A DNA stretch of 64,000 bases from Candidatus Anderseniibacteriota bacterium (GTDB lineage Bacteria > Patescibacteriota > Andersenbacteria > UBA10190), in the NCBI GenBank assembly GCA_040876835.1, contig JBBDOX010000011.1, forward strand, positions 1,452 to 65,451, given 5' to 3'. Below, piece by piece: positions 6,562-28,036 of this stretch (within the stretch, counting starts at the first letter, position 1; every line of letters begins with the position of its first letter). The notes under the pieces were generated by a model that saw nothing but the letters and a program-made list of their open reading frames with translations, was not told the DNA's origin and ran no database searches. The position numbers and the translations under genes are program-made.

Positions 6562-6688
6562 TGATTGCCCCGTACACTTTTACCTACATGGCTAATGAAT
6601 TTCAAAAAGATATCTGGAAAATCGGCATACTAGCTGGAACAGCTGTGATACTGATGATGCTCTTGCTTGTTGCTACATTTATATTTCG

Positions 6689-7225: not shown

Positions 7226-7253
7226 AAATCTTGATGGGCTATACTTTAAGATA

Positions 7254-7802: not shown

Positions 7803-7851
7803 GAAAAAAGCAGCCGAGAGGGCCGCTGTTAAGGAGGGGGCAACGCTGAGG

Positions 7852-8538: not shown

Positions 8539-8703
8539 CGTGAAATCCTCGCTGTTTGGGGAAAAGAAGATTGCCGAAAGAGCCGCAATATTGTTACAAT
8601 AAATTGATACTTAGTCAAGAGATGCCGGTTCTCCCGGGGCGTACATGCTCTAAATTCGAACTAAAAGCTGCATCAGGCCTCCGAGGCTGGTATACTGGCT
8701 TTT

Positions 8704-10473: not shown

Positions 10474-10489
10474 CGTTACTATTACCCCT

Positions 10490-11830: not shown

Positions 11831-11833
11831 TCT

Positions 11834-12680: not shown

Positions 12681-13030
12681 TTGTGCTGAATATCATACAG
12701 TGGTGATACTGCAGACGTCACAGGTAGCAAAAGTGTCCACGCGGTGGGCTCTTAGCTTTACTCGTAGTTCTTTATCTGGGAGGAATCTGGTTGAGGTTTT
12801 TGGAAAACTAGGTAGGCAGCCGCTTACTTCCTGGATCGAATATGTTGTATATGAAATACCGCTGTGGTTATATTCGGCGGTATTTCATGTATATGGCTTG
12901 CAAAACAAGGCCTGGTCCTGCAAAATCACTTCGTACCTCTTATACATACGGAGGGTGTTCCTTACTTTGAAACAAGGCCCAGTAATGGGCCTTTATTCCC
13001 GGGTAGCTCAATGGCAGAGCAACTGGCTGT

Positions 13031-13578
13031 GACATGTTCGTATTTAGTCTGCTAAAATATAAAGTATGATTGAAAAGCGAACATATGCCGACCGTCGCGA
13101 GCAAAACATCAAGGCTGTAGCTAAGCGTCGAAGAAAGCTAAAAGCAATGGTGATTGAGTATAAAGGCGGTAAGTGTATGATTTGTGGCTATACTCGTAGT
13201 GCGGCAGCATTAGAGCTTCATCATGTTAATCCCAAGGAAAAATCATTTAGTCTCTCCAAAAGAGGGCTGACGAGATCTTGGGAAAAGACAAAAGCTGAAG
13301 CTGATAAGTGTGTGCTAATCTGCTCGAATTGTCACAAAGAAGTACATGCAGGTGTAACGCAGCTTCCGCAAGTAATTGCGGTCGAATAACTGGGTGAATT
13401 CGGGGAAGCCTTAACTGGTAATCCCGAGCCAAGCCGAAGAGGGTATATAAGTTCTTCGGAAGGTGTAGAGACTAGGAAGTGAGTCCCAACAATATTCTTC
13501 CAGATAGCGCCCAGTACCCTTATATGTTGTAAGGGTGATGATATAGTCCATGCCGGCACGAAAGTGTTGGGTTACATG
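13031..13578 (+). mobile_element. Group I intron (548 nt) in the tRNA-Asn anticodon loop, carrying an HNH homing endonuclease ORF
   Basis: The 5' exon ends in U and the intron ends in G (omega-G). An R-like element GAGACUA (13468-13474) and an S-like element GAUAUAGUCC (13540-13549) can pair as P7 (GACUA/UAGUC). ORF 13066-13389 sits in a peripheral loop. Confidence 0.7.
13066..13389 (+). CDS. HNH homing endonuclease (intron-encoded)
   Basis: 107 aa. CMICG…LELHHVNPKEK…CSNCHKEVH is an HNH/zinc-finger nuclease motif. Basic N-terminus. Confidence 0.75.
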   Translation: MIEKRTYADRREQNIKAVAKRRRKLKAMVIEYKGGKCMICGYTRSAAALELHHVNPKEKSFSLSKRGLTRSWEKTKAEADKCVLICSNCHKEVHAGVTQLPQVIAVE

Positions 13579-13674
13579 TAACCAGTAGGTTGTCGGTTCG
13601 AGTCCGACCCCGGGAGCAAGTTTGTACGTTCGGTTATTATGGTGTTTACGTATTGATTGCTATAAATTGATTGC

Positions 13675-14175
13675 ATGGCTAACAATATCGCTTTTATTGA
13701 TGGACAGAATTTGCATATGGGAACGACTATGTCAGATAGACCATGGCGCGTGGATTTATCAAGATTTAAAATATACTTGCAGCAGAAGTACAATGTGAAA
13801 GAAGCGTACTACTTTCTAGGATTTACTCAGGACAGCCACCAAGACCTATATGATTCCATTCAAAAAGCTGGGTTTATTTTACAGTTTCGAGAACACAGTT
13901 CAGCTATGTTAGGAAAGAAGAAAGGCAACGTCGATACCGACATCGTGTTTTCAATAATGAAGAAGCTGTATCAGCAAGAAGACTTTGAAAAGGTTGTCTT
14001 AGTATCTGGTGATGGAGATTATAGAATGATGGTTGATTTTTTGATTGATGAGAACCGTTTGAGGAAGATATTATTTCCAGAACAAAGGCGAGCTTCGTCT
14101 CTGTATAAAAAGATTGATCTGAAATATAGGGCTGACTTGAGCGCTCAGGACGTGCGAAGAAAAATTGGACGATAA
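13675..14175 (+). CDS. NYN-domain (LabA-like, PIN-related) protein
   Basis: 166 aa. FIDGQNL…NVDTDIV…VLVSGDGDY matches the NYN/COG1432 acidic-residue pattern. Confidence 0.68.
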   Translation: MANNIAFIDGQNLHMGTTMSDRPWRVDLSRFKIYLQQKYNVKEAYYFLGFTQDSHQDLYDSIQKAGFILQFREHSSAMLGKKKGNVDTDIVFSIMKKLYQQEDFEKVVLVSGDGDYRMMVDFLIDENRLRKILFPEQRRASSLYKKIDLKYRADLSAQDVRRKIGR

Positions 14176-14291: not shown

Positions 14292-14414
14292 TCAATAAAC
14301 TAAATCTGCCGTTGTTTACCCTGAGCACAGTCGAAGGGTGCAGCTAGGTCTGGGACATAAATATAGTCTTTTTGCCTCTGGAAAATAGTTCTAACGTCGT
14401 CTACGATTCGGAGC
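14292..14414 (+). repeat. REP-like intergenic repeat, family R1 copy a; tandem degenerate second unit at 14481-14530
   Basis: About 100 nt similar to 21522-21620. Includes an identical 37-mer CTGGAAAATAGTTCTAACGTCGTCTACGATTCGGAGC at 14378-14414. A degenerate unit with palindromic core CTGGTTCGAAACCCGG follows at 14481. Confidence 0.7.
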
Positions 14415-14693
14415 CAAGTCGATTTTATTGCCGCAACTGTGGCCTGATTGCCTTCTACAAGGCAAAAATCGCCAAAATTCGCTGGTTCGAAACCCGGTAA
14501 AATGGCCTTAACATCATCTACGGGTGGGCCTTACACTACCACTAGAAATTTTGTTGACCGGCGTTCTTACGTTCGCCATAGTGTTTGCCTGATTGATCTT
14601 AATTAGGGGAGGGGAAGCTTGACCATGAATCTGGTGTGGGTATACTTAATGTATTGCTTAATATATTAAGTAAGTGATACCCTGATATTACCT

Positions 14694-15008
14694 ATGCTAA
14701 CCAAGAAGGATATACAAGCCGTGCGTGAGGCGATCATTGTTGATGATGAACAGTGGCCGCTAATGTTTAATGCCCTCGCTGACGTGGGCCGGTTTCGCAT
14801 CTTTAAACTATTACTAAAGCAACCGGAAGTGTGTGTGACTGATGTGGCCAATGTGTTGCAAATCTCTCTGCCAGCGGCTTCCCAGCAACTGCGGATTATG
14901 GAGCATGCGGGCTTAGTGAAAAAAGAGCGAATGGGTCAGATGATGTGCTACAGACTCTGTAATGACGATCTGCTTGTGAAATCAATTATTAAGATTACTA
15001 AAAAGTAG
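14694..15008 (+). CDS. ArsR/SmtB-family metalloregulatory HTH repressor
   Basis: 104 aa. …RFRIFKLLLKQPEVCVTDVANVLQISLPAASQQLRIMEHAGLV… is a winged-HTH ArsR signature. First gene of a co-directional nine-gene cluster. Confidence 0.75.
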   Translation: MLTKKDIQAVREAIIVDDEQWPLMFNALADVGRFRIFKLLLKQPEVCVTDVANVLQISLPAASQQLRIMEHAGLVKKERMGQMMCYRLCNDDLLVKSIIKITKK

Positions 15009-15015
15009 CAGATAT

Positions 15016-16029
15016 ATGAAGCAGCCGGCTACCATCATTCTTATCATCGTTTTAGCAGTAGTCGTTGCCGGGGGAGCCCGGTGGTGGCAGAGCAGATCAT
15101 TCAATCTGCCGTGGGGAGGAGAAGGCGTAACCGAAACAATTATGGTAGATAACCAAGAAAAAGAAATTATGGTAACAGACGGAGTTAAGCACAGTGTCCC
15201 TCTTGAGGAGATACGGACTGGGTGTCCGGGGCGAGATTGTATTCCGTCCATTGATAATCCGCAGTTTGAATCTGTTGAGCAGGCAGCCACGTGGCTTAAC
15301 GGTGATGATATTGGTCTGGCACTGGACTTGCGTGGCGTCAAACGGTTCTATCCCTTTCGTATTCTTGTCTCGCACGAGATTGTCAATGACACTATAGGCA
15401 GTCAGCGCGTCCTTGTGTCGTATTGTCCGCTATGTTTTACGGCTATTGTATTTGATCCCCTCGTCGAAGGTGAGCGGGTAGAGTTTGGCGTGTCCGGCAA
15501 ACTGTGGAATTCCAATCTGCTTATGTATGACCGCAAAACGGAGGATACCTTGTGGTCGCAGGTGCAGGGCGAAGCGGTAGTGGGGCCGTTAACCGGCACA
15601 ACATTACCCATTCTGCCTTCTGATGTGTCTAAGTTCGGTGCCTGGAGCGGCACTAATCCTGATGGCGAGGTGCTGTCCCGGGATACCGGCCGCTCGTTTG
15701 TTTCGTATGACAGCGTTCCCTATGGTGGCGATCTCACTAACATTGAGCCGTTCTTTCCCTACTCAAACAAAGACAGCCGTCTTGAGGCGACGGATATCGT
15801 GGCCGGGATCATTATTGGAGATGTACCGAAAGCATATTTGATGACAGCTGTGCAAGAGGCGGGATCATTTACCGAGACGGTAGGCGGAGTGTCTCTGCGA
15901 GTTGAATATGTTAAAGGAGAAGATGCAATCAGGGTGTTCAATGCCGATACCAATGAACGCATTCCTACGATTCCAGCTTTCTGGTTCTCGTGGGTGTCAA
16001 CTCATCCTGAGACAGAATTGTACGAATGA
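15016..16029 (+). CDS. DUF3179-family protein with N-terminal membrane anchor
   Basis: 337 aa. Cys-containing motifs CPGRDCIPSIDNP and YCPLCFTAIVFD. Resembles the uncharacterised DUF3179 family. Confidence 0.55.
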   Translation: MKQPATIILIIVLAVVVAGGARWWQSRSFNLPWGGEGVTETIMVDNQEKEIMVTDGVKHSVPLEEIRTGCPGRDCIPSIDNPQFESVEQAATWLNGDDIGLALDLRGVKRFYPFRILVSHEIVNDTIGSQRVLVSYCPLCFTAIVFDPLVEGERVEFGVSGKLWNSNLLMYDRKTEDTLWSQVQGEAVVGPLTGTTLPILPSDVSKFGAWSGTNPDGEVLSRDTGRSFVSYDSVPYGGDLTNIEPFFPYSNKDSRLEATDIVAGIIIGDVPKAYLMTAVQEAGSFTETVGGVSLRVEYVKGEDAIRVFNADTNERIPTIPAFWFSWVSTHPETELYE

Positions 16030-16667
16030 TTATGAATACAAAAATCATTACCGCAGGCCTTGGTGCAGCGGCGCTCATTGGAGCAGTTATATTTTTTACT
16101 CGTTCTCCACAAGCCGCTCAAGAGACAAACGTAGTCCTGTCTGCTGAACAGACGGGCGGTGTGGAATCAGGAGGCTGTCCGATTAGCAGCACGGGGCAGT
16201 GTGAGGCAGATGGCGGACACCAGACACCTACTGCCTCAACCGGTTCAACCGCGATGGTCTCTGAAAGTGTCGGCGATCACGATTTCACACTGGAAAAACT
16301 TGGCGGCGGGACGATTACGTTGGCAGAGTATCGCAGTCAAAAACCGGTCATTGTCGACTTCTGGGCATCTTGGTGTCCGAACTGCCGGCGGGACATGCCA
16401 AAAGTAAACGAGTGGTACCAACAGTACCGTGATCAGGTGGAAGTTATTGGTGTTAACCTCCAGGAGAGCTCGAAGACGGTTCAGCAGTTTGTTGACAGTA
16501 ATGACATAGTTTTTCCGATTGCGCTTGACCCAGCCGGGGTTGCATCGGCTCAATTCGGAATCCAGTTTACAAATACCCATCTTCTATTCAACAAATCTGG
16601 TGAGCTCGTCCGCGTGATTCCCGGCGATATTAAAGAGGAGGATATTGTATCCTTAATAGAATCGTAA
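16026..16667 (+). CDS. TlpA/ResA-like thiol:disulfide oxidoreductase (thioredoxin fold), membrane-anchored
   Basis: 213 aa. WASWCPNCRRDMP CxxC active site. N-terminal hydrophobic helix. ATG overlaps the upstream stop. Confidence 0.75.
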   Translation: MIMNTKIITAGLGAAALIGAVIFFTRSPQAAQETNVVLSAEQTGGVESGGCPISSTGQCEADGGHQTPTASTGSTAMVSESVGDHDFTLEKLGGGTITLAEYRSQKPVIVDFWASWCPNCRRDMPKVNEWYQQYRDQVEVIGVNLQESSKTVQQFVDSNDIVFPIALDPAGVASAQFGIQFTNTHLLFNKSGELVRVIPGDIKEEDIVSLIES

Positions 16668-16670
16668 ACC

Positions 16671-17201
16671 ATGCAGTCGAAGACCACACTATCGATCGCC
16701 GCCGCCGTTGTCACTATTGTGGCGGGAGCAGTGTGGCTTAGTGCGCAAAATATGAGTCAGGAAGAAGTCAACGAACCCTCGAGTGCGCAACTACCTAGTG
16801 TTTCTTTGACAGATTATGAGGGTAATGAAGTGAACGTAGCTGACTTTTTTGGTAAACCAATCGTTGTTAACTCGTGGGCCGTTTGGTGCCCGTTTTGTGT
16901 GAAAGAATTGCCGGATTTTGTGACGGTCCAGAAAGAATTTGAAAATCAGGTTACCTTTATTGCCATTGACCGCGCCGAACCGCGTGACGTGGCTAAAGAG
17001 TTTACTGATGGCTTAGGCATTACTGATGACTTAGTATTCTTGCTCGATCCAAGAGACTCTTTTTACCAAGCCATTGGAGGTTTTTCTATGCCGGAGACGT
17101 TGTTCGTGAACACTGACGGGGAAGTGGTATTTCACAAGCGCGGCCCGATGCCGCTTGAAGAAATCCGGCAACGGACGCAAGCGTTACTTCAGCAGCAATA
17201 A
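16671..17201 (+). CDS. Second TlpA-like redoxin
   Basis: 176 aa. WAVWCPFCVKELPD CxxC site. N-terminal anchor. Confidence 0.75.
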   Translation: MQSKTTLSIAAAVVTIVAGAVWLSAQNMSQEEVNEPSSAQLPSVSLTDYEGNEVNVADFFGKPIVVNSWAVWCPFCVKELPDFVTVQKEFENQVTFIAIDRAEPRDVAKEFTDGLGITDDLVFLLDPRDSFYQAIGGFSMPETLFVNTDGEVVFHKRGPMPLEEIRQRTQALLQQQ

Positions 17202-17205
17202 ATCT

Positions 17206-17967
17206 ATGATAGATGTTTCTTTGATTATCCCCTCGTTTATAGCCGGCGTACTCACATTCTTGGCGCCCTGCACGCTGCCGTTGGTGCCTGGCTATTTAGG
17301 ATTTATCAGCGGCGTGTCGCTTGATGATTTGCGTGATCCGGTGAAAGCTCCGGGCATTCGTCGTCGAATTCTCTTAAACGGTCTGTTGTATGTTATCGGT
17401 TTTAGCGTTGTCTTTATTATTCTCGGATCATTAGTCGGTTTTGCCGGAGCTTTACTGGGGCAGTATCGTTTGTGGCTGACTCGTATTGGCGGGGTGCTGG
17501 TGATCTTCTTCGGGCTTTACATGATGCGGATTATCAAGCTACCGGCCTCAATGAGCGCGGAAAAACACTTCATTCCCGTGCGCTGGCTTAAACCCGGACA
17601 TCCAACGAGTTCTTTTCTGTTTGGCGTGGCCTTTGCCGCCGGGTGGACTCCGTGCGTAGGCCCCATACTCGCCTCTATCCTGGCGTTAGCGGCGGCGACA
17701 ACCACTCTGTGGCAAGGCGCGTTTTTACTGACTATTTTCTCACTCGGCCTGGCAGTGCCGTTTTTGGTCATCGCTGCCGGTATCGGGTCGGTCGCCCCGC
17801 GGCTCACTAAGCTGGAGAAGTATCTCAATTGGGTATCAATTGTCGGCGGGATATTCCTGGTCTTTGTCGGTATCTTGCTTCTAACCAATCGCTTGGCGGT
17901 CTGGATTGGCTACTCGTACCAGTGGCTGGAATTTCTTAACTATGACCGGTTACTCGAATACCTATGA
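17206..17967 (+). CDS. ccdA: Cytochrome c-type biogenesis / thiol-disulfide transporter CcdA (DsbD membrane core)
   Basis: ATG at 17206, 4 nt after the redoxin stop. …LAPCTLPLVPGY… and …WTPCVGPILASIL… are the two conserved Cys-containing TM motifs. The upstream in-frame extension of the ORF track is rejected. Confidence 0.78.
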   Translation: MIDVSLIIPSFIAGVLTFLAPCTLPLVPGYLGFISGVSLDDLRDPVKAPGIRRRILLNGLLYVIGFSVVFIILGSLVGFAGALLGQYRLWLTRIGGVLVIFFGLYMMRIIKLPASMSAEKHFIPVRWLKPGHPTSSFLFGVAFAAGWTPCVGPILASILALAAATTTLWQGAFLLTIFSLGLAVPFLVIAAGIGSVAPRLTKLEKYLNWVSIVGGIFLVFVGILLLTNRLAVWIGYSYQWLEFLNYDRLLEYL

Positions 17968-18347
17968 AGTATCAACTTGCCAGGAAAGAACTTTTTAAGA
18001 TAACCTGGTTCCCGGTGCTGATAGCATCGTTATGCTGTTTTGCTCCCGTTATTCTGGTGCTGTTTGGTTTGAGCACCGTTGCGTTTGCGGCGTCACTTTC
18101 CGATTTTCTCTACGGTCAATACAAATGGTGGTTTCGCTTGGTTGGTCTATTGCTGCTGGCTGCTTCACTCGTGGTCTACCTGCGTCGCTCAAAAGGTATT
18201 TGCACCATTAATCAAGCCAAACAAAGGCGCAATGAAATCATTAACTTAGCCTTCATAGTCTTAAGCGTCAGTGTGGTTGGGTATATCCTATGGTTATATG
18301 TCATTGTTGAACTTATTGGCCATCTCCTGGGTATTTGGGGAGTATAG
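17964..18347 (+). CDS. Small polytopic membrane protein with CC motif in TM1 (MerT-like)
   Basis: 127 aa. …ASLCCFAPVILVLFGL…YLRRSKGIC… resembles the MerT-superfamily architecture (vicinal Cys pair in the first helix). Assignment is tentative. Confidence 0.4.
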   Translation: MKYQLARKELFKITWFPVLIASLCCFAPVILVLFGLSTVAFAASLSDFLYGQYKWWFRLVGLLLLAASLVVYLRRSKGICTINQAKQRRNEIINLAFIVLSVSVVGYILWLYVIVELIGHLLGIWGV

Positions 18348-18350
18348 TCT

Positions 18351-18812
18351 ATGAACGCTCATCCTGATCACAAGCCACTCGATTACGATTACATTACTGA
18401 TGGTATCTACATTGGCACAAATGTCTGTTGCCAAGTTCATTTTGATGAACGCCTCGCCAAGGAAGGCATAGAGGCAGACATATCTTTGGAAGCAGACCGC
18501 GTGGATGCACCATTTGGTGTGGAGTTTTATTTGTGGCTGCCAGTGGTTGATCATACGGCACCAACACCGGAACAGGTAGAAACTGGTATTCAGATGCTAG
18601 AAACGCTGATGAAATTAGGCAAGAAAGTATACGTCCATTGCAAGAATGGGCATGGCCGGGCACCGACACTAATAGCTGCGTATCTGGTTAAACAAGGTAA
18701 GTCGGTGGATGAGGCAATTGCTTTTTTGCAGACGAAGCGGTCAGCCGTTCACCTTCGCGATATTCAGGAAAAAGCTTTAAGAGCATGTCGACAATCACTA
18801 ACAGTCTCTTAA
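18351..18812 (+). CDS. Dual-specificity / tyrosine-phosphatase-fold protein (CX5R)
   Basis: 153 aa. VHCKNGHGRAPT is the HCxxGxxR(S/T) P-loop of the PTP/DSP fold. Confidence 0.7.
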   Translation: MNAHPDHKPLDYDYITDGIYIGTNVCCQVHFDERLAKEGIEADISLEADRVDAPFGVEFYLWLPVVDHTAPTPEQVETGIQMLETLMKLGKKVYVHCKNGHGRAPTLIAAYLVKQGKSVDEAIAFLQTKRSAVHLRDIQEKALRACRQSLTVS

Positions 18813-18815
18813 GTT

Positions 18816-18998
18816 ATGGCAAGGAGTGTACAACAAGACGATTCAAGTCAGTTTCAATGTGAGGAGTGTGGTTTTATATACCGCGAAAGGCAGTGGGCGG
18901 AGAAATGCGAGGCGTGGTGCAAAGAGCACCAAAGCTGCAATCTCGAAATAATCCAGCATGGGGTTCCTGGCAAAGAAGGAGGTGATAGTCATGGATAA
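18816..18998 (+). CDS. Small CxxC…C…C zinc-ribbon-like protein
   Basis: 60 aa. QCEECGFIY…CEAWCKEHQSC. Directly follows the phosphatase. Confidence 0.4.
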   Translation: MARSVQQDDSSQFQCEECGFIYRERQWAEKCEAWCKEHQSCNLEIIQHGVPGKEGGDSHG

Positions 18999-19152
18999 GT
19001 GTTTAAAGTGTAGTATGGATTCGGAGGGATACAAGTGCGACGCGTGCGGGGCAGAGTCGAAGGAGCACGATGATAACCATGCGTGCGGGAGCGATCACTG
19101 CATGCCCAAATGCAAGGGATGTGGTCAAGCCCAAGTAAAATGTCCTTGCTAA
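18991..19152 (+). CDS. Cysteine-rich (12 Cys in 53 aa) metallothionein-like metal-binding peptide
   Basis: An AGGAGG RBS sits 8 nt before ATG 18991. MDKCLKCSMDSEGYKCDACG…HACGSDHCMPKCKGCGQAQVKCPC. The ORF-track entry starts earlier at 18958. Confidence 0.5.
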   Translation: MDKCLKCSMDSEGYKCDACGAESKEHDDNHACGSDHCMPKCKGCGQAQVKCPC

Positions 19153-19242
19153 TAACCTTTCGCAGCTGTAACAAAAACCGCTCGGTGGCCGATATTTCTT
19201 CCTTTTTATGCTTTTTATGTATTTTTAGTTTATTATGTAGGT

Positions 19243-20496
19243 ATGAATAAAAATATAATTGTTTCTGCTCTTTTTCTTCTCATCGGCGGTCTTGTAGGCG
19301 TAGGCGCATATGCCACTTCGACCGGTACCCGAGTGCCGAGTGATCGCATCCCCGGCCAGTATGTTGTTGTTCTCAAAGACACAACAACAAACCCAAATGA
19401 AGTTGCGAACAAGGTTGCTAAAGAATACGGCTTGGGCTTGCAGCAGGTATATGAGCACGCCCTGAAAGGATTTGCGGCGACTATTCCCGATGCCAGACTG
19501 GATAATGTAAAAAATGACAGTCGGGTGTTGTTTGTGAGTGAGGATAAAGTCGTGACGACATTTGCCAAACCTTCAGCTCCCAGTTCTTCAGCTAGCCAGA
19601 CCCTGCCAACTGGTGTTGACCGGATTAATGCGGAGAATAAAGCGAACAAAGGCACAGGCGTGAACGTAGCGGTGATTGATACTGGCATTGATCTAAAACA
19701 CCCTGACCTTAAAGCGAATATTGTGGGTGGTAAGAATTGCTCAACCGGCCGAAGCTATACTGACGGCAACGGGCACGGCACGCATGTGGCCGGAACGATT
19801 GCGGCGCTGAATAACAGCACGGGTGTAGTCGGCGTGGCGCCAGAAGCTAAGTTATGGGCGGTGCGGGTTTTGGATAATAGTGGCAGTGGATCATGGTCTT
19901 CAGTCATCTGCGGTATTGATTTTGTGACGAGCAAGGCGGGAACTATCAAAGTAGCCAATATGAGTCTCGGTGGCAGTGGGGGTAGTGATAACAATTGTGG
20001 GTTCACAAATAAGGATGCGTTACATAAAGCGATCTGCAATTCCCGGAATGCGGGTGTAACGTATGTGGTGGCGGCCGGTAACAGTGCGGCGGATGCCAGC
20101 AAATTTGTTCCGGCAGCGTATGACGATGCGGTCATTACTGTTTCCGCTTTGGCTGATTCTAATGGTCAACCGGGTGGCGGCGGAGCCGCAACCAGTTATG
20201 GTGTCGATGACACCTTTGCCAGTTTCAGCAATTACGGCAACGTGGTTGATCTGGGTGCACCTGGTGTGAATATTCTCTCCACATGGAAAGGTGGCGGCTA
20301 CAATACGATTAGTGGCACTAGTATGGCCACACCGCATGTGACCGGATCAGCGGCATTGTATATTGCTGCGCATCCCGGTTCGACTTGGGCACAAGTACAC
20401 GATGGCCTGAAAGCAATTGGTGAACTGACTGGCTTTGGGCACACAGATCCGTCCGGCAACCACCCCGAAGCGGTTGTTCGGGCTGATGCACTCTAA
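19243..20496 (+). CDS. Secreted subtilisin-like serine protease (S8) with I9 propeptide
   Basis: 417 aa. Signal peptide. Catalytic-triad motifs VAVIDTGID, HGTHVAGTIAA and GTSMATPHVTG. Confidence 0.88.
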   Translation: MNKNIIVSALFLLIGGLVGVGAYATSTGTRVPSDRIPGQYVVVLKDTTTNPNEVANKVAKEYGLGLQQVYEHALKGFAATIPDARLDNVKNDSRVLFVSEDKVVTTFAKPSAPSSSASQTLPTGVDRINAENKANKGTGVNVAVIDTGIDLKHPDLKANIVGGKNCSTGRSYTDGNGHGTHVAGTIAALNNSTGVVGVAPEAKLWAVRVLDNSGSGSWSSVICGIDFVTSKAGTIKVANMSLGGSGGSDNNCGFTNKDALHKAICNSRNAGVTYVVAAGNSAADASKFVPAAYDDAVITVSALADSNGQPGGGGAATSYGVDDTFASFSNYGNVVDLGAPGVNILSTWKGGGYNTISGTSMATPHVTGSAALYIAAHPGSTWAQVHDGLKAIGELTGFGHTDPSGNHPEAVVRADAL

Positions 20497-20504
20497 CTCT
20501 ACAC

Positions 20505-20804
20505 ATGGAAACACCTCTACCGCCTCGTAAATCAAAGAAGGGTAAGTTAGTCGGCGTACTTATCATTATAGTATTGGTCGTTGGTGTTGCTGCCTATTTC
20601 TACGTGCGACATGTTTTCACCCGCCTCAACCAAGCCGAACAAGTTATTGCCGACGCCCAAGCCTACCAGATCACGAGCGATGCTCTGCAAACCGAGCACG
20701 CTCGGTGTCAGGATTTTATTGTCCAGCGCCGCGGCGATTTTGGAGACTTTGAGTACTGCAAAGCATTTATTAATTGGGTGGCAAGCAATCAATTGCTGCC
20801 CTAG
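20505..20804 (+). CDS. Hypothetical membrane-anchored protein
   Basis: 99 aa with an N-terminal TM helix. No recognisable domain. Confidence 0.4.
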   Translation: METPLPPRKSKKGKLVGVLIIIVLVVGVAAYFYVRHVFTRLNQAEQVIADAQAYQITSDALQTEHARCQDFIVQRRGDFGDFEYCKAFINWVASNQLLP

Positions 20805-20852
20805 TACGCAATTATTAATGGGGTCAGCCACCATTAATTCTTCAGCTCCCTT

Positions 20853-20885
20853 ATTCTGGTTCGGAAGACGTCCTGGTCTGCGAGC
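20853..20885 (+). repeat. REP-like repeat family R2 copy a
   Basis: ATTCTGGTTCGGAAGACGTCCTGGTCTGCGAGC is identical to 23080-23112. Confidence 0.7.
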
Positions 20886-20966
20886 TCGTAAAAATATAGC
20901 TTAATTAAGCAGTTGAACATTAGACAAGAGCAGGACGCTAGAACCACTAACATTTATTATTACTAA

Positions 20967-21533
20967 ATGGAGAGTGAGCCCAAATTGATAATCATTACAG
21001 GTCGTCCAGGTTCAGGAAAAACAACCCTAGCTAAGAAGCTTGGAGAGTCTCTATTTATGCCTGTGGTTGTTCGGGATGAAATAAAAGAGGGTTACATTAA
21101 CACATTCAATACGAGTCACAATAATCTTCCGGATGAGACAAATGGCAAAGTAACAAGGATATTTTTTGAAAATGTTGATTTTCTTTTATCTCGCAATGTC
21201 TCATTGGTTGCAGAAGCTGCCTTCCAGCATCATGTTTGGGAGCCACAGATTGCCAAATGGAAGGAAACTGCAAATATATTCTTCATTATTTGTGAAATTG
21301 ATGCCGACGTGGCTGCTGAGCGTCATATAAAGAGGGGCGTAGAAGAACCTAAGCGAGAGCTATATCACGGAGACAACAAGGTGGTTCACTTCAAAAAGAC
21401 GGGGGAAGTATTGCCGGCGGGTGAATATACGCCACCTTCCCTTGATGTGCCGACTTTGAAAGTCTCAACCCTAGATGGCTACGCCCCGTCATTAGAAGAA
21501 ATTGAAAAACAAATTACTGAGTCAATAAACTAA
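20967..21533 (+). CDS. P-loop NTPase / putative small-molecule or nucleotide kinase (AAA_33/zeta-like)
   Basis: 188 aa. Walker A GRPGSGKTTLAKKL near the N-terminus. No other diagnostic motif. Confidence 0.5.
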   Translation: MESEPKLIIITGRPGSGKTTLAKKLGESLFMPVVVRDEIKEGYINTFNTSHNNLPDETNGKVTRIFFENVDFLLSRNVSLVAEAAFQHHVWEPQIAKWKETANIFFIICEIDADVAAERHIKRGVEEPKRELYHGDNKVVHFKKTGEVLPAGEYTPPSLDVPTLKVSTLDGYAPSLEEIEKQITESIN

Positions 21534-21620
21534 ATTTGCCCTCGTGGGCGCAGGTCTGGAATATAAACATATTCTTTCTGCATCTGGAAAATAGTTCTAA
21601 CGTCGTCTACGATTCGGAGC
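21522..21620 (+). repeat. REP-like repeat family R1 copy b
   Basis: Begins inside the last codons of the preceding CDS (TCAATAAACTAA). Includes the identical 37-mer at 21584-21620. Confidence 0.7.
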
Positions 21621-21674
21621 AATACATACGAGCCATATCCTTGCACCTTGTGTATATAGAAATATAATCAGGAT

Positions 21675-22496
21675 ATGGATGCAAAAGACATGCAGTTCGC
21701 AGACTCGATACCGAAGAATTATGATCGGTACCTTGGACCTCTCTTATTTACGTTCACAAGTGCTGACACCGCGCGGCGGGTCGCAGCGATCGGTCTTAAA
21801 ACCGGAAAGGTGCTTGAGATCGCTGCCGGGACGGGCATTACAACCGAACATATGCGAAATGCCTTACCAGAGTCGGTACATATTGTCGCGACGGACATTT
21901 CAGAGGCAATGCTCGTGTTTGCAAGACAGAAGCGAGGCCATTTACAGAATGTTGCCTGGGAGGCCGCTGACGCGATGGATCTTCTGTATGAAGACAATAG
22001 TTTTGATGCCGTGGTTTGTCAGTTCGGGATCATGTTTTTTCCTGATAAAGAAAAAGGCCTTGTTGAGATGCTACGCGTCCTGAAACCAGGAGGGACGCTC
22101 ATTATTAATGTTTGGGATTCACAAGATAAGAATCGTGTTGTAAGGCTCTGCGGTGAGATAATAGCGTCATTTTTTGAAACAGAGCCGCCGACATTTCTTA
22201 AGATCCCGTTTGGGTTCTATGATGTCGATGCGATCACCACAATGATAGAGGACGCCGGATTTGACGAAGTTACATCTGAATATGTTTCAGAAACATTCAC
22301 CACTATTCCGGCATCCGACATCGCACGCGGCATGGTCATGGGAAATCCAACCATTGGAGAGTTACAAAAACGAGGAACTACTGGTATCGATACTGTGGTC
22401 AATGCGATCACTGAGGCTATTGAAGACGAATTTGGGAAAAACACACCGACATTCTCAATACAAGAAATAGTTTTTACCGCAAAGAAACCTTTTTAG
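21675..22496 (+). CDS. Class I SAM-dependent methyltransferase
   Basis: 273 aa. VLEIAAGTGITTE (motif I) and …LKPGGTLII… (post-II). Confidence 0.75.
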   Translation: MDAKDMQFADSIPKNYDRYLGPLLFTFTSADTARRVAAIGLKTGKVLEIAAGTGITTEHMRNALPESVHIVATDISEAMLVFARQKRGHLQNVAWEAADAMDLLYEDNSFDAVVCQFGIMFFPDKEKGLVEMLRVLKPGGTLIINVWDSQDKNRVVRLCGEIIASFFETEPPTFLKIPFGFYDVDAITTMIEDAGFDEVTSEYVSETFTTIPASDIARGMVMGNPTIGELQKRGTTGIDTVVNAITEAIEDEFGKNTPTFSIQEIVFTAKKPF

Positions 22497-22631
22497 AATA
22501 AAGGTGTCAGGTACTTTTATTCCTTTACAGAGCATCTTGGCTGGTGTTCAGCAGAGTCCAGTGATTGAAAAAAGAATCAAGAAGCTGTTGCTTAGAAATA
22601 GTGAGTAGCGGAGTGGGGTATACTAAACCAT

Positions 22632-23033
22632 ATGCAAAAAGTTATCTTCATATGTGCTGAAAACGCGGGGCGCTCTCAAATGGCAGAAGCGTTTTTTAAT
22701 ACCTTATCGGGCAATTCTGGTTTTACCGCTGAAAGTGCTGGTACTACGCCTGCTTCCACAATTAACCCCGTGGCTATTGAAGTAATGGGAGAAAAAGGCA
22801 TGGATATTTCTTCTCAATTTCCCAAGCAGTTTGACCCTGATACTGCTGGTGAGTATGAACGCCTTATCTCTTTCGGGTGTCTGGTAAAATCTGCATTTTC
22901 GCCAGCCGTGCAGGAAAGGATTGAGGATTGGATTGTAGAAGACCCCAAGGATAAGGAGCTAGAAGAGGTTCGTACTATCCGTGATGATATTGAGCGACGG
23001 GTGAAAGCACTGTTAGCTGACCTGGGAGAATAA
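22632..23033 (+). CDS. Low-molecular-weight phosphotyrosine phosphatase / ArsC-like (LMW-PTP fold)
   Basis: 133 aa. N-terminal P-loop ICAENAGRSQMAE (CX5R-S). Lacks the downstream Cys pair of thioredoxin-coupled ArsC, so LMW-PTP is favoured. Confidence 0.68.
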   Translation: MQKVIFICAENAGRSQMAEAFFNTLSGNSGFTAESAGTTPASTINPVAIEVMGEKGMDISSQFPKQFDPDTAGEYERLISFGCLVKSAFSPAVQERIEDWIVEDPKDKELEEVRTIRDDIERRVKALLADLGE

Positions 23034-23079
23034 CTTTCCTTGTCCCTGCTTTGACCAGATATGCTTTTGATACTGCCGG

Positions 23080-23112
23080 ATTCTGGTTCGGAAGACGTCC
23101 TGGTCTGCGAGC
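23080..23112 (+). repeat. REP-like repeat family R2 copy b, plus an inverted related element at 23152-23182
   Basis: Identical 33-mer to 20853-20885. The reverse complement of 23152-23182 reads GCCTACCTCTGGTTCGAAACTCCGACTTGG, related to R1 and unit 2. Confidence 0.65.
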
Positions 23113-23239
23113 AGTAATTTTAACCGCTCAATACAGCGATATAATTTTCGACCCAAGTCGGAGTTTCGAACCAGAGGTAGGCAATTAATAACTTCGCTTG
23201 ATTATCTCTTTATCTCTTTATATATTCGTAGTAGCGAAT

Positions 23240-23752
23240 ATGTATCAAGAGGTGTTCCAACTTCACGCTGATCTCCTTAAAGCCTTGGCCCAACCACGCC
23301 GTCTTGAGATTATCAACTTGCTTCAAAATCAAGAGCTGTCAGTGACTGAGATGCAGGAGATGTTGGCTTTACCCCAGGCTAACCTAAGCCAGCACTTGCA
23401 GGTGTTACGCAAGCAAGGAGTGGTTATTGATCGACGAGATGGCAAACAGATATTTTATCGGTTAGCACACAAGAACTTTCTCAAAGCCAATCATCTTTTG
23501 CGCGATGTGTTGATTAAACGGCACGAGAAAACACCATTAGCAAAAGTTATGAATAAAGAGGTGGCTCAACTACTACCCGTCGTTATCGACCCCGTCTGTG
23601 GTATGCGGGTGAGTAAAAAAACTGCAGCCGCTTCTCACCCACACAAAGGAAGTCGCTTTTATTTCTGCGCTAGGGGGTGTTTGAATAAATTTAAGAAGTC
23701 CCCTCAAGTATATTCCTTAACAACAAAAACTCATGAACACACCGCACCGTAA
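23240..23752 (+). CDS. ArsR-family HTH regulator fused to a C-terminal YHS/TRASH-type metal-binding domain (putative copper sensor)
   Basis: ATG at 23240; the ORF-track start is TTG 23198. HTH …LSVTEMQEMLALPQANLSQHLQVLRKQGVV…. C-terminal DPVCGMRV…FYFCARGC is a YHS-like motif. Confidence 0.68.
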   Translation: MYQEVFQLHADLLKALAQPRRLEIINLLQNQELSVTEMQEMLALPQANLSQHLQVLRKQGVVIDRRDGKQIFYRLAHKNFLKANHLLRDVLIKRHEKTPLAKVMNKEVAQLLPVVIDPVCGMRVSKKTAAASHPHKGSRFYFCARGCLNKFKKSPQVYSLTTKTHEHTAP

Positions 23753-25427
23753 CAAGTATCTTGGCATCATCGTTGTTATCGCCCTACTTATTGGCGCCGG
23801 TTGGTTAGCGGGCAGATATCAGAATGGTGGCGATCAACGCACTAGATCACAGCAAGTTTTGAAATTCTTTTCATCTGAAACAACGGGATTAACCGATGCT
23901 GTGCCTATGCCAATCGTTGAGCTGAAAGACGGTGATACCTACGACCTCACAGCGCAGCAAGTTAAGAAAAGTATCAACGGGCAGGATGTGAAAATGCTCG
24001 CCTACAACGGCTCTGTTCCCGGGCCGCTGATTAAAGTGCCGCAAGGAGCGGAGATCACTGTTAACTTCACCAACAACACGGATGTGGAAACCACCCTACA
24101 TTCTCACGGCGTACGGGTTGATAACGCATTCGATGGTATCCCAGGCATAACCCAAGACCCCATTCCCGTCGGCGGGTCTTTTACCTATCGCCTCAAATTC
24201 CCCGATGCTGGTATGTACTGGTATCACCCGCATATCCGAGAAGACTATGCCCAAGAGCTGGGACTGTACGGTAATTTCTTAGTTGAACCGAAAGATACTG
24301 CGTTGTGGTCGCCGGTTAATCGTGAAGTACCCCTGGTGCTCGATGACATTTTAATTGAGAATGGCCGGATCGCAGCTTTTGCGGAAAATGATGCCAGTCA
24401 TACCCTTATGGGTCGCTTTGGTAATACGATGCTGATAAATGGCGAAACCAGTGCAAGCCTTATTGCCAATCCAGGAGAAGTTGTCCGTTTCTTTATCACT
24501 AACACCGCCAACACCCGCACTTTCAATTTTAGTATTCCGGGGGCACAAATGAAGCTCGTTGGTAGCGATGGCGGAATGTATGAGAAAGAAACATTTGTTG
24601 ATAGCGTTACCATTAGCCCATCGGAGAGAGCGACAGTAGACGTGCGATTCGCGAACGTCGGAACATACTCACTGCAACACGCCACACCTCAAAAAACGTA
24701 TCCGCTTGGCACTGTCATTGTAAGTGGTGAGGCAGTCTCTCCCTCATATGCATCCCAGTTTGCAACGACGCGAACCAATGCAATTGTGCAATCGGAAATG
24801 GATGAGTTGCGTCCTCTGCTAGCAAGGGTTGTTGATAAAAGTCTCAATATTGGCATCGACATGGAAATGATGAACATGATACAGGGTGGTGGCGGACACA
24901 TGATGTTCAACGGACTGCTTGGCAACGAAGCCTTAGCGCAAATGAGTAATCCCACAGCTGGTCACGGGCAGCACATGATGCCGGACGGTAGCATAATGAG
25001 TAACAATATGATGATGGGTGGCAATGATCCGATTGAGTGGGAAGATGATATGGTACCGATGAATATAAACTCCAACAAAGAGTCAGTTCAATGGAAGCTG
25101 ATCGATGAAGTGACTGGTAAAGCGAACATGGATATTGACTGGAAGTTTAAGGTCGGAGACAAAGTCAAAATTAGAATTACCAATGACGCTAATTCCATGC
25201 ATCCGATGCAACATCCCATTCATCTACACGGTCAGCGTTTTCTTGTCACCAGCACCAATGGTATAGCAAGTGGTAACCTAGTCTGGAAAGACACCGCGCT
25301 TATCAAAACTGGCGATACGGTTGAACTGCTGGTTGATATGACTAATCCAGGAGAGTGGATGCTGCACTGTCACATTGCTGAGCACTTGGAGGACGGCATG
25401 ATGCTGCCGTTTACCGTTAGCCCTTAG
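23733..25427 (+). CDS. Multicopper oxidase (CueO/laccase-like) with Met/His-rich insert
   Basis: 564 aa. Copper-ligand motifs HSHGVRV, WYHPH, HPIHLHGQRF and HCHIAEHLEDGMM. Met-rich segment MEMMNMIQGGGGHMMFN…HMMPDGSIMSNNMMMGG. Signal/TM helix at the N-terminus. Confidence 0.85.
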   Translation: MNTPHRNKYLGIIVVIALLIGAGWLAGRYQNGGDQRTRSQQVLKFFSSETTGLTDAVPMPIVELKDGDTYDLTAQQVKKSINGQDVKMLAYNGSVPGPLIKVPQGAEITVNFTNNTDVETTLHSHGVRVDNAFDGIPGITQDPIPVGGSFTYRLKFPDAGMYWYHPHIREDYAQELGLYGNFLVEPKDTALWSPVNREVPLVLDDILIENGRIAAFAENDASHTLMGRFGNTMLINGETSASLIANPGEVVRFFITNTANTRTFNFSIPGAQMKLVGSDGGMYEKETFVDSVTISPSERATVDVRFANVGTYSLQHATPQKTYPLGTVIVSGEAVSPSYASQFATTRTNAIVQSEMDELRPLLARVVDKSLNIGIDMEMMNMIQGGGGHMMFNGLLGNEALAQMSNPTAGHGQHMMPDGSIMSNNMMMGGNDPIEWEDDMVPMNINSNKESVQWKLIDEVTGKANMDIDWKFKVGDKVKIRITNDANSMHPMQHPIHLHGQRFLVTSTNGIASGNLVWKDTALIKTGDTVELLVDMTNPGEWMLHCHIAEHLEDGMMLPFTVSP

Positions 25428-25445
25428 TTTATTAATTGTTCTTTT

Positions 25446-27590
25446 ATGAACCACAATAATCAAACATCGAAAACATACACTTGTCCGATGCATCCTAATG
25501 TTCGGCAGGGTACTCCCGGTATGTGTGCTGAATGCGGAATGGCACTTGTAGAGACAAAGGACGAAGCTATTCACCACGGACACGCTGAAGACCATAGTCA
25601 GCACGACAAGCACGAAGGCCACAGCACGAATATCTTCGCCAAGAAATTCTGGATTAGCTTGGTTTTAACAATCCCGATTGTTCTTTATTCACCTTTGCCG
25701 CAAACATTTCTCGGCTGGTCACCGCCGACTTTTTCTGGCTCTTGGCTTATCCCACTGCTACTTGGATCAATTGTCTTTTTCTACGGCGGCTGGGTTTTCC
25801 TAACCAGCGCTTGGCGGGAACTGAAGGGCAAAGCGCCCGGAATGATGACGCTCATTTCGTTGGCGATAGTGACGGCGTATGTGTATAGCGTCATCCAAGT
25901 TTTACGAGGATTAGAAGAAACACTGTTTTGGGAACTCACGACTTTGATTGTTGTGATGCTCTTAGGGCACTGGATGGAGATGCGGGCAGTCAAAGGAGCG
26001 CAAGGAGCTTTAAAGGAGTTGTCCAAGTTGTTACCTGATACGGCAGAAGTTGAATCCCCCTCCGCTAAAGTTTCGGGGGATAAACTCACTCGTGTTATTC
26101 CTCTCTCTGAACTGCAAGCAGGCGATATTATCATTGTTCGCCCCGGTGGCAAGGTGGCGGCTGATGGTGATGTTATTGAAGGAGAATCAGATATCGACGA
26201 AGCTTTGGCCACCGGTGAATCAAAGCCAGTCCAGAAAAAAGTTGGGGATGCGGTGATTGCCGGTACTATAAACGGCGATGGTTCGCTGCGTGTAAAGATC
26301 ACCAAGATTGGCGACGACACGTTCTTAGCTGGCGTGATGCGTTTGGTGCAAGAAGCGCAAGCCAGCAAGTCAAAGCTACAACTTTTATCTGATAAAGCAG
26401 CTTTTTATCTGACAGTCATCGCGGTTGCAGTTGGGTTGCTCACCTTGGTTGTCTGGTTGCCGTTGCGCGGCGCTGACTTTGGCTTTACCCGCATGGTGGC
26501 CGTTCTGGTGATTGCCTGTCCGCATGCGCTTGGACTTGCTATCCCCCTTGTCGCTTCTATCTCAACTACGATGGCTGCTCGTAACGGTTTTCTGGTCAGG
26601 CAGCGATTAGCACTTGAAGCAGCTCGCAATATTGATGTAGTTCTGTTCGATAAAACCGGAACACTGACCAAAGGAGAGTATGGCGTGTCTCGTATTTTTC
26701 CCGTACATGCGGCCGATGATAAGGAAGTATTATATTTGGCAGCTTCGGTTGACGTAAAATCTGAACACTCAGCTTCCCGAGCAATCGTCAGGAAGGCGCA
26801 AGAAGAGAATATTAGCTTGACGGCCATTACTGGTTTCAAGCGACTGCCGGGCAGAGGTGTCAGCGGTGTGATTAATGGTCAAACAACTAAAGTTGGTGGT
26901 CGCGCTCTCTGGAATGAGTCAGGCCTATCGTTGGCAGTTGCCGATCGTCAAAAGATTGAAGCGGAGAGCAAGGCCGGTAAAACCATTATTTATGTACTGA
27001 AAGAAAAGGAGCTCGCAGGCATTATTACACTCGGTGACATCATCCGCGAAGAGTCACGAGAGGCCATCCGGCAACTCAAGGCTCAAAATGTTCAGGTAGC
27101 TTTGGTTTCTGGAGATTCAGAAGCCGTAGCAAAGTGGGTATCACAGGAGCTTGATATCGATGAATACTTTGCGGAAGTGTTGCCGGAGCACAAAGCGGAC
27201 AAGGTTAAACAATTACAGCAGCAAGGTAAGAAGGTCGCCATGGTCGGCGACGGCATCAACGACGCCCCGGCCTTAACGCAGGCTGATGTCGGCATTGCCA
27301 TCGGAGTCGGTACGAACGTCGCCATCGAATCAGCCGGCATCGTGCTGGTAAAAAACGATCCGCGAGACATTCCCAAGATTATCCGGCTTTCCCGTCTGAC
27401 CTACACCAAAATGATCCAGAACCTCTTCTGGGCAACGGGGTACAATATTGTAGCACTGCCATTAGCAGCAGGGGTGGCAGTCGCTTGGGGTATTGTGCTT
27501 AACCCGGCCGTGTCAGCTGTTTTTATGTCGCTTTCCACTGTAATTGTGGCTGTGAATGCGGTGATGTTGCGACGACAGTCGTTACAGTAG
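25446..27590 (+). CDS. copB: Copper-translocating P1B-type ATPase, CopB-like (P1B-3: CPH motif, His-rich N-terminus)
   Basis: 714 aa. N-terminal CPMHP…CAECGM and HHGHAEDHSQHDKHEGH. TM CPH (ACPHALG). DKTGTLT, GDGINDAP and TGES motifs. Confidence 0.9.
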   Translation: MNHNNQTSKTYTCPMHPNVRQGTPGMCAECGMALVETKDEAIHHGHAEDHSQHDKHEGHSTNIFAKKFWISLVLTIPIVLYSPLPQTFLGWSPPTFSGSWLIPLLLGSIVFFYGGWVFLTSAWRELKGKAPGMMTLISLAIVTAYVYSVIQVLRGLEETLFWELTTLIVVMLLGHWMEMRAVKGAQGALKELSKLLPDTAEVESPSAKVSGDKLTRVIPLSELQAGDIIIVRPGGKVAADGDVIEGESDIDEALATGESKPVQKKVGDAVIAGTINGDGSLRVKITKIGDDTFLAGVMRLVQEAQASKSKLQLLSDKAAFYLTVIAVAVGLLTLVVWLPLRGADFGFTRMVAVLVIACPHALGLAIPLVASISTTMAARNGFLVRQRLALEAARNIDVVLFDKTGTLTKGEYGVSRIFPVHAADDKEVLYLAASVDVKSEHSASRAIVRKAQEENISLTAITGFKRLPGRGVSGVINGQTTKVGGRALWNESGLSLAVADRQKIEAESKAGKTIIYVLKEKELAGIITLGDIIREESREAIRQLKAQNVQVALVSGDSEAVAKWVSQELDIDEYFAEVLPEHKADKVKQLQQQGKKVAMVGDGINDAPALTQADVGIAIGVGTNVAIESAGIVLVKNDPRDIPKIIRLSRLTYTKMIQNLFWATGYNIVALPLAAGVAVAWGIVLNPAVSAVFMSLSTVIVAVNAVMLRRQSLQ

Positions 27591-27634
27591 AAGTTAGTTA
27601 GGATTTACAAATAGGCTTCTTATGCAGCGCCAAT

Positions 27635-27664
27635 TTGGTTCGAACTTTCTCCGTCCCTTGGAGC
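27635..27664 (+). repeat. Degenerate REP-like element (TTTGGTTCGAACTTTCTCCGTCCCTTGGAGC)
   Basis: Shares the TGGTTCGRA…TCC…GAGC pattern with R2. Lies directly 3' of copB. Confidence 0.4.
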
Positions 27665-27674
27665 ACTTTTTAGC

Positions 27675-27959
27675 CTATTTTTCACCCAGAGGTATTTTTT
27701 TGTATGGTCCCCAGGACTGTGTCCAACTTTTGGACTTCCACCGAAGAAAGAAATGAAGACTTATTCCTAATAGACTTAACGGTAAGAAGAACAAGCCAAC
27801 AGCAACCCATCCTTTCCAAAGAAGTAAAAAGAGCGCGACACTTAAAATAACAATCCATTTCACTAACCTAAACCAGGAGGGCTGGCCATTCAGAATCACA
27901 TACTTTTCTCTTCTAAGAAATTCTTTGAATTTCATTTTTAAAGTGTATACCAAATTCAA
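27675..27959 (-). CDS. Small two-helix membrane protein, hypothetical
   Basis: 94-aa hydrophobic ORF. Confidence 0.35.
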   Translation of the reverse strand: MNLVYTLKMKFKEFLRREKYVILNGQPSWFRLVKWIVILSVALFLLLWKGWVAVGLFFLPLSLLGISLHFFLRWKSKSWTQSWGPYKKIPLGEK

Positions 27960-28036
27960 ATCAGCTAGCTCTAATTTCCCCTTTTCCCAGTTCAGAGTTC
28001 TGAATTTGTTCAGTAAGAGGAGCTACAACTTAAAGC

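Follow-up and report, generated by a model that had tools for sequence, protein, structure and literature searches.

Intergenic repeats downstream of a tRNA-Asn gene in a Candidatus Anderseniibacteriota bacterium as probable attP arms of large serine recombinase genes

Introduction

Serine integrases tell their two attachment sites apart by spacing: the motif for the zinc ribbon domain (ZD) lies 5 bp nearer to the centre in attB than in attP (PMC3783163). In other elements, attP is part of the integrase gene. The attP site of myxophage Mx8 lies within the coding sequence of intP, and integration gives the gene a new 3' end (PMC6070905). The integrase gene of the fusellovirus SSV1 likewise contains attP within its coding sequence (PMC4383910). 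Here, we describe a family of short intergenic repeats in a metal-resistance region of a Candidatus Anderseniibacteriota bacterium that combines aspects of these systems. The repeats lie in a 64-kb stretch of contig JBBDOX010000011.1 (referred to as the window; all coordinates without a further label refer to it). An earlier sequence-only reading had likened them to repetitive extragenic palindromes (REP) and bacterial interspersed mosaic elements (BIME). As judged by sequence homology, they are instead leftover 3' ends of large serine recombinase (LSR) genes. Recombinase 3'-end homology, a common break point, a 5-bp offset, a shared locus and tandem arrays in relatives were all observed. Probably, the repeats are the P arms of attP sites that are located inside the 3' ends of minus-strand LSR genes and stayed behind as scars of elements stacked at a tRNA-Asn gene.

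Results

Repeat Pairs and Their Relatives in the Window

Two pairs of identical repeats had been reported, and both were reproduced at the same coordinates. R1 is an exact 37-nt repeat present at 14378-14414 and 21584-21620, whereas the exact 33-nt repeat R2 occurs at 20853-20885 and 23080-23112. Neither pair is expected in shuffled sequence (0 expected in shuffles for each). The four copies belong to the regions designated A and C (R1) and B and D (R2). The similar context of about 100 nt that had been noted around R1 was also found: A and C resemble each other over about 100-123 nt (14292-14414 versus 21522-21620) with a 24-nt indel. An alignment of about 100 nt between B and D is owed solely to the identical core, and the flanks beyond the 33-mer are not significantly alike. 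The core motif CTGGTTCGRAA has four exact occurrences, all within these repeat-bearing intergenic regions. When one mismatch was allowed, 10 matches were obtained as compared with 2.05 expected. A regular expression built on motif spacing located a sixth probable copy at 27996-28023. Among the degenerate relatives that had been listed, the one at 27635-27664 proved to be a true relative (arm E), the one at 14481-14530 lies inside a recombinase pseudogene, and the one at 23152-23182 has only an inverted 11-mer in common with the repeats.

The Repeats Read as 3' Ends of Large Serine Recombinase Genes

Read on the minus strand, every copy in the window corresponds to the last 16-37 codons of an LSR gene. 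The peptides read LRIVDDVRTIFQ... for A and C and LADQDVFRTRI... for B and D. Differences between A and C beside the identical core are synonymous or conservative (D/E, I/V, V/I). A metagenome scan with a 21-nt core of R2 matched three contigs. In L003, the R2 33-mer is situated within the 3' end of an intact LSR open reading frame (ORF) of 524 amino acids (302-1876), which ends ...PLVAAVRETWLADQDVFRTRMRQFDKDVWSKEQTPVA followed by a stop codon. This ORF contains the domains Recombinase and Zn_ribbon_recom, and its homologues also contain PF00239. When the L003 recombinase was compared with the window by tblastn, it matched relic D with 73% identity over 22 amino acids (E 5.9e-6), and together with its relatives it also matched B. 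P0005 matched region A at 14411-14521 with 76% identity over 37 amino acids (E 1.4e-13), and P0015 matched the stump in the same region with an E value of 1.4e-11. Six-frame translation of region A revealed an internal stop and no start codon in the matching frame. The homology to LSR proteins, the stop and the missing start together mark this sequence as a pseudogene stump.

The individual relics, all on the minus strand, share one layout. Relic A (14300-14414) consists of the P arm R1a (14387-14414) followed by the coding tail LRIVDDVRTIFQRQKDYIYVPDLAAPFDCAQGKQRQI and a stop codon, and its likeness to C goes on to 14292. It is adjoined by the LSR pseudogene stump (14415-14560), which reads ..VDDVKAILPGFEPANFGDFCLVEGNQATVAAIKSTW, has a stop upstream and no start, and represents the P' side of an unrecombined attP-like junction, GGAGC/CAAGTCGA (the slash marks the break point). 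Relic B (20834-20885) comprises the P arm R2a (20858-20885), the tail LADQDVFRTRIRELKN with its stop codon and the junction GAGC/TCGTAAAAA. In relic C (21530-21620), the P arm R1b (21593-21620) is followed by the terminated tail LRIVDDVRTIFQMQKEYVYIPDLRPRGQI, which overlaps the stop codon of a kinase gene; the junction is GAGC/AATACATAC (GAGC/AATACAT). Relic D (23013-23112) is made up of the P arm R2b (23085-23112) and the tail LADQDVFRTRIRQYQKHIWSKQGQGKLFSQVS up to its stop codon, with the junction GAGC/AGTAATTTT. Relic E (27598-27664) has a diverged P arm (27637-27664), the terminated tail LQGTEKVRTKLALHKKPICKS and the junction GAGC/ACTTTTTAG. The probable P arm F, AGTTCTGAATTTGTTCAGTAAGAGGAGC/TACAAC (27996-28023), is weaker than A-E and encodes LLLLNKFRTLNW; FRTLNW within this peptide is identical to the tail of P0008 at the same offset from the break. 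The frame of arm F (27675-28022) is open for 115 codons and runs into a 94-amino-acid membrane-like ORF (27675-27959). A former recombinase tail may here have turned into the 5' region of a different gene.

A search with the L003 protein yielded 30 further homologues (31 matches including itself), and the named ones originate from Candidatus Andersenbacteria or Paceibacterota. Beyond a conserved ..[ST]WL, the C termini of these 31 proteins fall into two classes. Those of the first class, PGSDSNRQPTGYM, ATWVSNQKRDTKGEF and similar sequences, are antisense translations of tRNA genes and represent the integrated form. Those of the second class are xxDD[VFY]RT tails like the ones encoded by R1, R2 and E. 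The sequence PGSDSNRQPTGYM is identical to the antisense translation of exon 2 of the tRNA gene in the window, LLPGSDSNRQPTGYM followed by a stop codon.

Other origins of the peptides were considered. N-terminal stubs of receiver domains of response regulators (LRIVDDVRTIF, LLADQDVF) were rejected, as Pfam yielded nothing at E<=10 and recombinase homology accounts for the peptides. Pfam gave no family for any of the repeat peptides even at this permissive cutoff, and Rfam, run with gathering as well as permissive thresholds, gave none for the repeat regions. The short minus-strand ORFs with start codons that span B, C and D could be taken for small protein genes (38-47 amino acids), and the inverted CTGGTTCGRAA ends at D for the termini of miniature inverted-repeat transposable elements. 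However, matches of the peptides are restricted to the C-terminal tails of recombinases of 500-600 amino acids, their N-terminal parts are mutually unrelated, and Pfam assigns the peptides to no family. Inverted ends stand out clearly at D alone, and target-site duplications are lacking. Both ideas are therefore very improbable.

Two further observations concern the recombinase genes themselves. In the LSR genes of L003, L004 and L007, a second GGTTCG is found in P-arm orientation about 66-72 nt upstream of the crossover, where it encodes a conserved [TLFV]EP. Its counterpart in the window lies at 14482-14492, and the sequence that follows (14499-14530) matches R1 at 20 of 28 positions. Either an ancient duplication of the arm within the gene or chance could account for this second GGTTCG. 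A possible recombinase remnant at 13618-13760 is not claimed, because its tblastn score stems mainly from the tRNA-antisense part and the remainder overlaps a gene for an NYN-domain protein.

A Common Break Point and a 5-bp Offset

Every arm loses homology directly after GAGC. This applies to A-F in the window as well as to the arms in L001, L007, L012, L021 and L023. The break base, ...GAGC/, is position 74 of the tRNA-Asn in the window. Intact LSR genes continue past GAGC with CAAGT; thus, Trp in ..TWL is encoded by TGG, the reverse complement of the tRNA CCA. In a MAFFT alignment of 11 sites, GTTC, TC and GAGC were invariant and a 5-nt gap was opened in the tRNA rows. Counted from [AG]GTTC[GT], the break lies 23 nt away in tRNA-Asn (window, L004, L007, L022) as opposed to 28 nt in every P arm. 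The shared motif and an offset that matches the attP/attB rule of serine integrases lead us to regard the repeats as P arms of attP, and the T-loop and acceptor strand of the tRNA as the B arm. The putative B arm, GGTTCGAGTCCGACCCCGGGAGC, is located at 13595-13617 on the plus strand within the tRNA-Asn gene. Two suggestions of the sequence-only reading gain substance from these data. It had remarked that GGTTCGAA recalls a tRNA T-loop, and the alignment indeed shows that the arm mimics the T-loop and the 3' end of its target, tRNA-Asn. It had also considered sites for a dedicated DNA-binding protein, and homology points to a large serine recombinase as that protein.

The R2 33-mer is 32-33/33 identical across four copies from three samples, whereas the adjoining 47 nt of the tail are only 43-60% identical. 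Such a difference argues for a constraint on the DNA site beyond coding and fits a protein-binding site. To the right of the break, only the flank of the relic in L021 is significant as decayed recombinase (P') sequence (z 5.9). The flanks to the right of two R2-type arms (B in the window, 20886-20911, and L001, 3355-3380) match at 18 of 26 positions in register. The matching sequences include the near-palindrome GCTTAATTAAGC, and D has GCTCAATACAGC at the same offset.

A tRNA gene upstream, several T-loop-like direct repeats and a tandem stack of islands would also be compatible with displaced tRNA 3' fragments from islands of tyrosine integrases. The arms are, however, not copies of the tRNA 3' end, since only GTTC, TC and GAGC are invariant and arms and tRNA differ by a 5-nt offset. 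For this reason, att repeats copied from the tRNA were ruled out as a source of the arms. Furthermore, the Phage_integrase domain was detected in none of the ORFs scanned between 13066 and 27959, and intact copies of the repeats belong to serine recombinase genes. An origin of the arms in tyrosine-integrase islands is accordingly considered highly improbable.

Folding and Copy Number of the Repeats

The proposal of REP/BIME-type palindromes, which would be mobilized by a REP-associated tyrosine transposase (RAYT) or act in RNA stability or termination, agrees with the intergenic positions of the repeats 3' of plus-strand genes and with the finding that the B and D regions fold better than shuffled sequences. 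RNA folding confirmed the imperfect palindromy only in part. R1 exhibited no significant fold (z +0.16 and +1.26 for R1a), the D region folded well (z -3.3 and -4.2, dG -40.7 and -40.5 kcal/mol), and the B region folded weakly (z -2.1). The stem in the D region (23083-23174) is formed by R2b and an inverted partial copy about 60-70 nt downstream, so R2 folds only via a distant partner. This partner contains an inverted exact copy of CTGGTTCGAAA (23164-23174, minus strand), which pairs with R2b in a long hairpin. The hairpin could be a terminator or another half-site; it has only a weak counterpart at B.

The window contains two copies of each exact repeat, all in one 14-kb region. Several other results speak against REP elements. 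Homology ties the repeats to the 3' coding portions of recombinase genes, the break point is fixed, and R1 is not palindromic. Neither a degenerate pattern of the R1 family nor the 21-nt R2 core gave a match in a 596-Gb genome collection, among whose representatives the source genome is not included. No Rfam family matched, and when a RAYT was sought by tblastn with a Y1 transposase as the query, the window gave no match at E<=1. We therefore attach next to no credence to a REP/BIME nature of the repeats. A scan of viral contigs with a degenerate arm pattern returned only chance matches in high-GC contigs. On L001, an unrelated metagenome contig, a gene for a Y1 (IS200/RAYT-like) transposase (2149-2829) is located about 500 nt from an R2-type arm, which is probably coincidental.

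The tRNA-Asn Target and Its Occupation in Relatives

The presumed integration target, the gene for tRNA-Asn(GUU), extends from 12997 to 13617 on the plus strand. Its exon 1 (12997-13030) and exon 2 (13579-13617) are separated by a group I intron of 548 nt (13031-13578; Rfam RF00028, 73 bits) that interrupts the anticodon loop after U35 and contains an ORF for an HNH endonuclease (13066-13389; Pfam). ARAGORN missed the gene because the intron splits it. Splicing at 13030/13579 gives a tRNA-Asn(gtt) of 73 nt with its 3' end at 13617. The orthologous gene is devoid of an intron in L007 and L022 and contains a shorter intron without an ORF in L004.

The host gene order Fpg-M23-DnaG-RpoD-PPIase-tRNA-Asn is the same in the window, where the protein genes are found at 5695-12523, and in L004, L007 and L022. 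In each of these three relatives, an intact recombinase gene lies directly beside tRNA-Asn and is oriented so that it reads into the tRNA gene. The common synteny and the intact elements at tRNA-Asn place the island of the window at a locus that is used by this recombinase family. Matches of 100% to P0032 and P0152 assign the window to a metagenome-assembled genome of Candidatus Andersenbacteria.

Complete elements provide the template for the arrangement. In L007, the order is tRNA, recombinase, core genes, cargo, P arm and flank, in total about 10.8 kb with one distal P arm. In L009 and L012, two recombinase elements are arranged in tandem, which explains why chromosomal recombinase ORFs can retain an attP-type tail. 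In L021, an element with a related recombinase has ArsR-x-DsbD genes as cargo on the far side of a relic arm, which recalls the first large cargo module in the window (M1, see below).

A Model for the Origin of the Array

Downstream of tRNA-Asn, six arms (the sixth being probable) are present in a single orientation and separate cargo modules, which points to a pile-up of element remnants. According to our model, integrative elements of candidate phyla radiation (CPR) bacteria would insert at the extreme 3' end of tRNA-Asn(GUU), and crossing over would take place inside ...GAGC or immediately behind it, at tRNA position 74. The recombinase would read the T-loop of the tRNA and the 3' strand of the acceptor stem as the B arm of attB. 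Because the P arm carries [AG]GTTC[GT] 5 bp further from the crossover, the half-sites of attP and attB could be told apart. Upon integration, the recombinase ORF would read through into the antisense strand of the tRNA gene and end ..TWL-PGSDSNRQPTGYM, and the P arm plus the old tail would be left behind at the far end of the integrated element. The segment 13618-28023 would then be a pile-up of at least five element remnants from at least two recombinase subfamilies (R1-type, R2-type and others), arisen by serial integration and subsequent loss of recombinase and core genes except for one pseudogene stump. The earlier view that the repeats are not simple att repeats of one island agrees with this picture, in which several elements belonging to two or more recombinase subfamilies (R1-type and R2-type) are stacked. 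We infer that the arms go back to real integration events; the same applies to the order of these events and to the mode by which the recombinase genes were removed.

A number of points weigh against this model. Canonical serine integrases recombine attP with attB only, and this rule alone does not explain several P arms without an adjacent recombinase gene. By tblastn, an intact recombinase gene is absent from the window, where only the stump at 14415-14560 was found. At tRNA genes that are occupied by a recombinase gene, the sequence is GAGC/CAAGTC. The current tRNA junction in the window is GGGAGC/AAGTTTG and has the look of an unoccupied site despite the island on its downstream side. To the right of B, C, E and F, no P' sequence (the recombinase side of attP) can be recognized, and the flank of D is marginal (p 0.08). 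Neither an empty attB nor a circular attP junction was observed; the two loci that were retrieved via PPIase homologues as candidates for the empty site turned out to be paralogous and lacked the tRNA.

Cargo Modules and Recombinase-less Modules

The order of the region is tRNA-Asn, NYN gene, R1a plus stump, M1, R2a, M2, R1b, M3, R2b, M4, E, the 94-amino-acid ORF on the minus strand and F. All cargo genes assigned to modules M0-M4 are encoded on the plus strand, and the assignments are based on Pfam. Module M0 is a single NYN-domain gene (13675-14175; Pfam NYN, 2e-15), the sole gene between the tRNA and relic A. A gene for this PIN-like nuclease adjoins a recombinase 3' end or arm both in the window and in L003 (1881-2381), in opposite relative orientation. 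Module M1 (14694-20804) encodes ArsR, a DUF3179 protein, two thioredoxin-like proteins, DsbD/CcdA, a membrane protein, a dual-specificity phosphatase, Cys-rich ORFs, a subtilase and an unknown protein. The Cys-rich ORFs are two small overlapping frames between the phosphatase and subtilase genes (18816-19152), one of which matches DUF7128; they may specify metal-binding peptides. Module M2 is a single gene for an AAA/zeta-toxin-like kinase (20967-21533), for which an exact-protein look-up retrieved no record. Module M3 (21675-23033) consists of genes for an S-adenosylmethionine-dependent methyltransferase and a low-molecular-weight phosphatase/ArsC-like protein. Module M4 (23198-27590) encodes an ArsR-YHS regulator, a multicopper oxidase and a copper P-type ATPase (CopA).

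Modules bounded by arms but devoid of a recombinase gene also occur elsewhere. In L012 (6110-6947), a single gene for a protein of 199 amino acids is enclosed by two P arms. In L023 (7859-10400), three arms without a recombinase gene are all situated downstream of tRNA-Gln. The window kinase has its closest homologue (74% identity) in L023, where the gene is followed by an R1-type arm and then by the two other arms, in a different context.

These findings raise the idea of integron-like cassettes, in which units of left flank, cargo, tail and P arm would lack a recombinase and be captured and moved by a recombinase acting in trans, the arms being live sites. Short arm-bounded modules of this kind recur in other genomes (L012, L023), and a kinase gene plus R1-type arm exists in two unrelated contexts (window, L023). 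In addition, cargo genes read toward the arm in every module of the window except the one between E and F, the arms are far better conserved than the sequences adjoining them, and the right flanks of two R2-type arms correspond in register (B and L001, 18/26). On the other hand, neither a circular cassette nor an array with a demonstrated active recombinase was seen, and to our knowledge serine integrases do not recombine attP with attL or attR. The complete elements in L007 and L021 indicate that an arm normally marks the far end of a full element. The relic in L021 retains a clear remnant of recombinase coding sequence beside its arm, pointing to decay and not to design. On balance, mobile cassettes appear unlikely, and an eroded tandem array of elements at tRNA-Asn is the more probable reading.

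Discussion

The vague label of REP-like repeats can be replaced by a precise module map, because six junctions ending ...GAGC/ delimit the modules of the metal-resistance region. For a recombinase family of the little-studied CPR bacteria, the target (the 3' end of tRNA-Asn), the P arm and the likely crossover can now be defined. Specialists in mobile elements may take an interest in a serine recombinase that would use a tRNA gene as attB, in an attP embedded in the recombinase ORF such that integration would swap the C-terminal tail of the enzyme, and in the recurrence of modules that have no recombinase gene but retain a perfectly conserved arm. The pairs of 28-nt P arm and 23-nt B arm are directly testable and could serve as new integrase/att pairs. 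If the cassette idea should after all prove true, capture of cassettes by a serine recombinase would constitute a functional analogue of integrons in CPR bacteria that is based on a different enzyme family. In that case, modules would be stacked at a tRNA 3' end and reshuffled by a recombinase provided in trans.

Among known systems, REP/BIME elements resemble the repeats of the window as short repeats in 3' intergenic positions. Unlike them, the window repeats stem from coding sequence and as a rule form no palindromes; their copy number in the window is low, and no RAYT gene accompanies them there. Integron cassettes with their attC sites are alike in the common orientation of the cargo genes, in the recombination site of about 60-120 nt behind each of them and in the occurrence of single-gene modules. 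By direct reading, however, the arms in the window are without RYYYAAC/GTTRRRY core sites, an IntI tyrosine recombinase is lacking, the recombinase family is of the serine type, and mobility of the modules as cassettes is hypothetical. Tandem tRNA islands of the Islander/TIGER class share the stacking at one tRNA, a distal delimiting site for each island and an adaptive cargo, in this case metal resistance. The locus described here departs from them because its repeats mimic the tRNA end and do not copy it, because the recombinase is a serine recombinase, and because most of its islands lack an integrase gene.

The exchange of a gene's 3' end is shared with Mx8 and SSV1, as the window family would replace an xxDDVRT tail by a tRNA-antisense tail. 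The enzymes of Mx8 and SSV1 are tyrosine recombinases, whereas the family considered here consists of serine recombinases in which only the last ~16-45 codons would be swapped. Similarity also exists to the large serine integrases of Listeria A118/LI, phiC31 and Bxb1, whose attachment sites were modelled by Rutherford et al. (2013, PMC3783163) and with which the family has in common the Resolvase, Recombinase and Zn-ribbon domains, short sites, a fixed crossover and a half-site motif that is 5 bp nearer to the centre in attB than in attP. It differs from these enzymes by the probable use of a tRNA gene 3' end as target, by its many arms that are not accompanied by a recombinase gene and by the location of attP inside the recombinase ORF.

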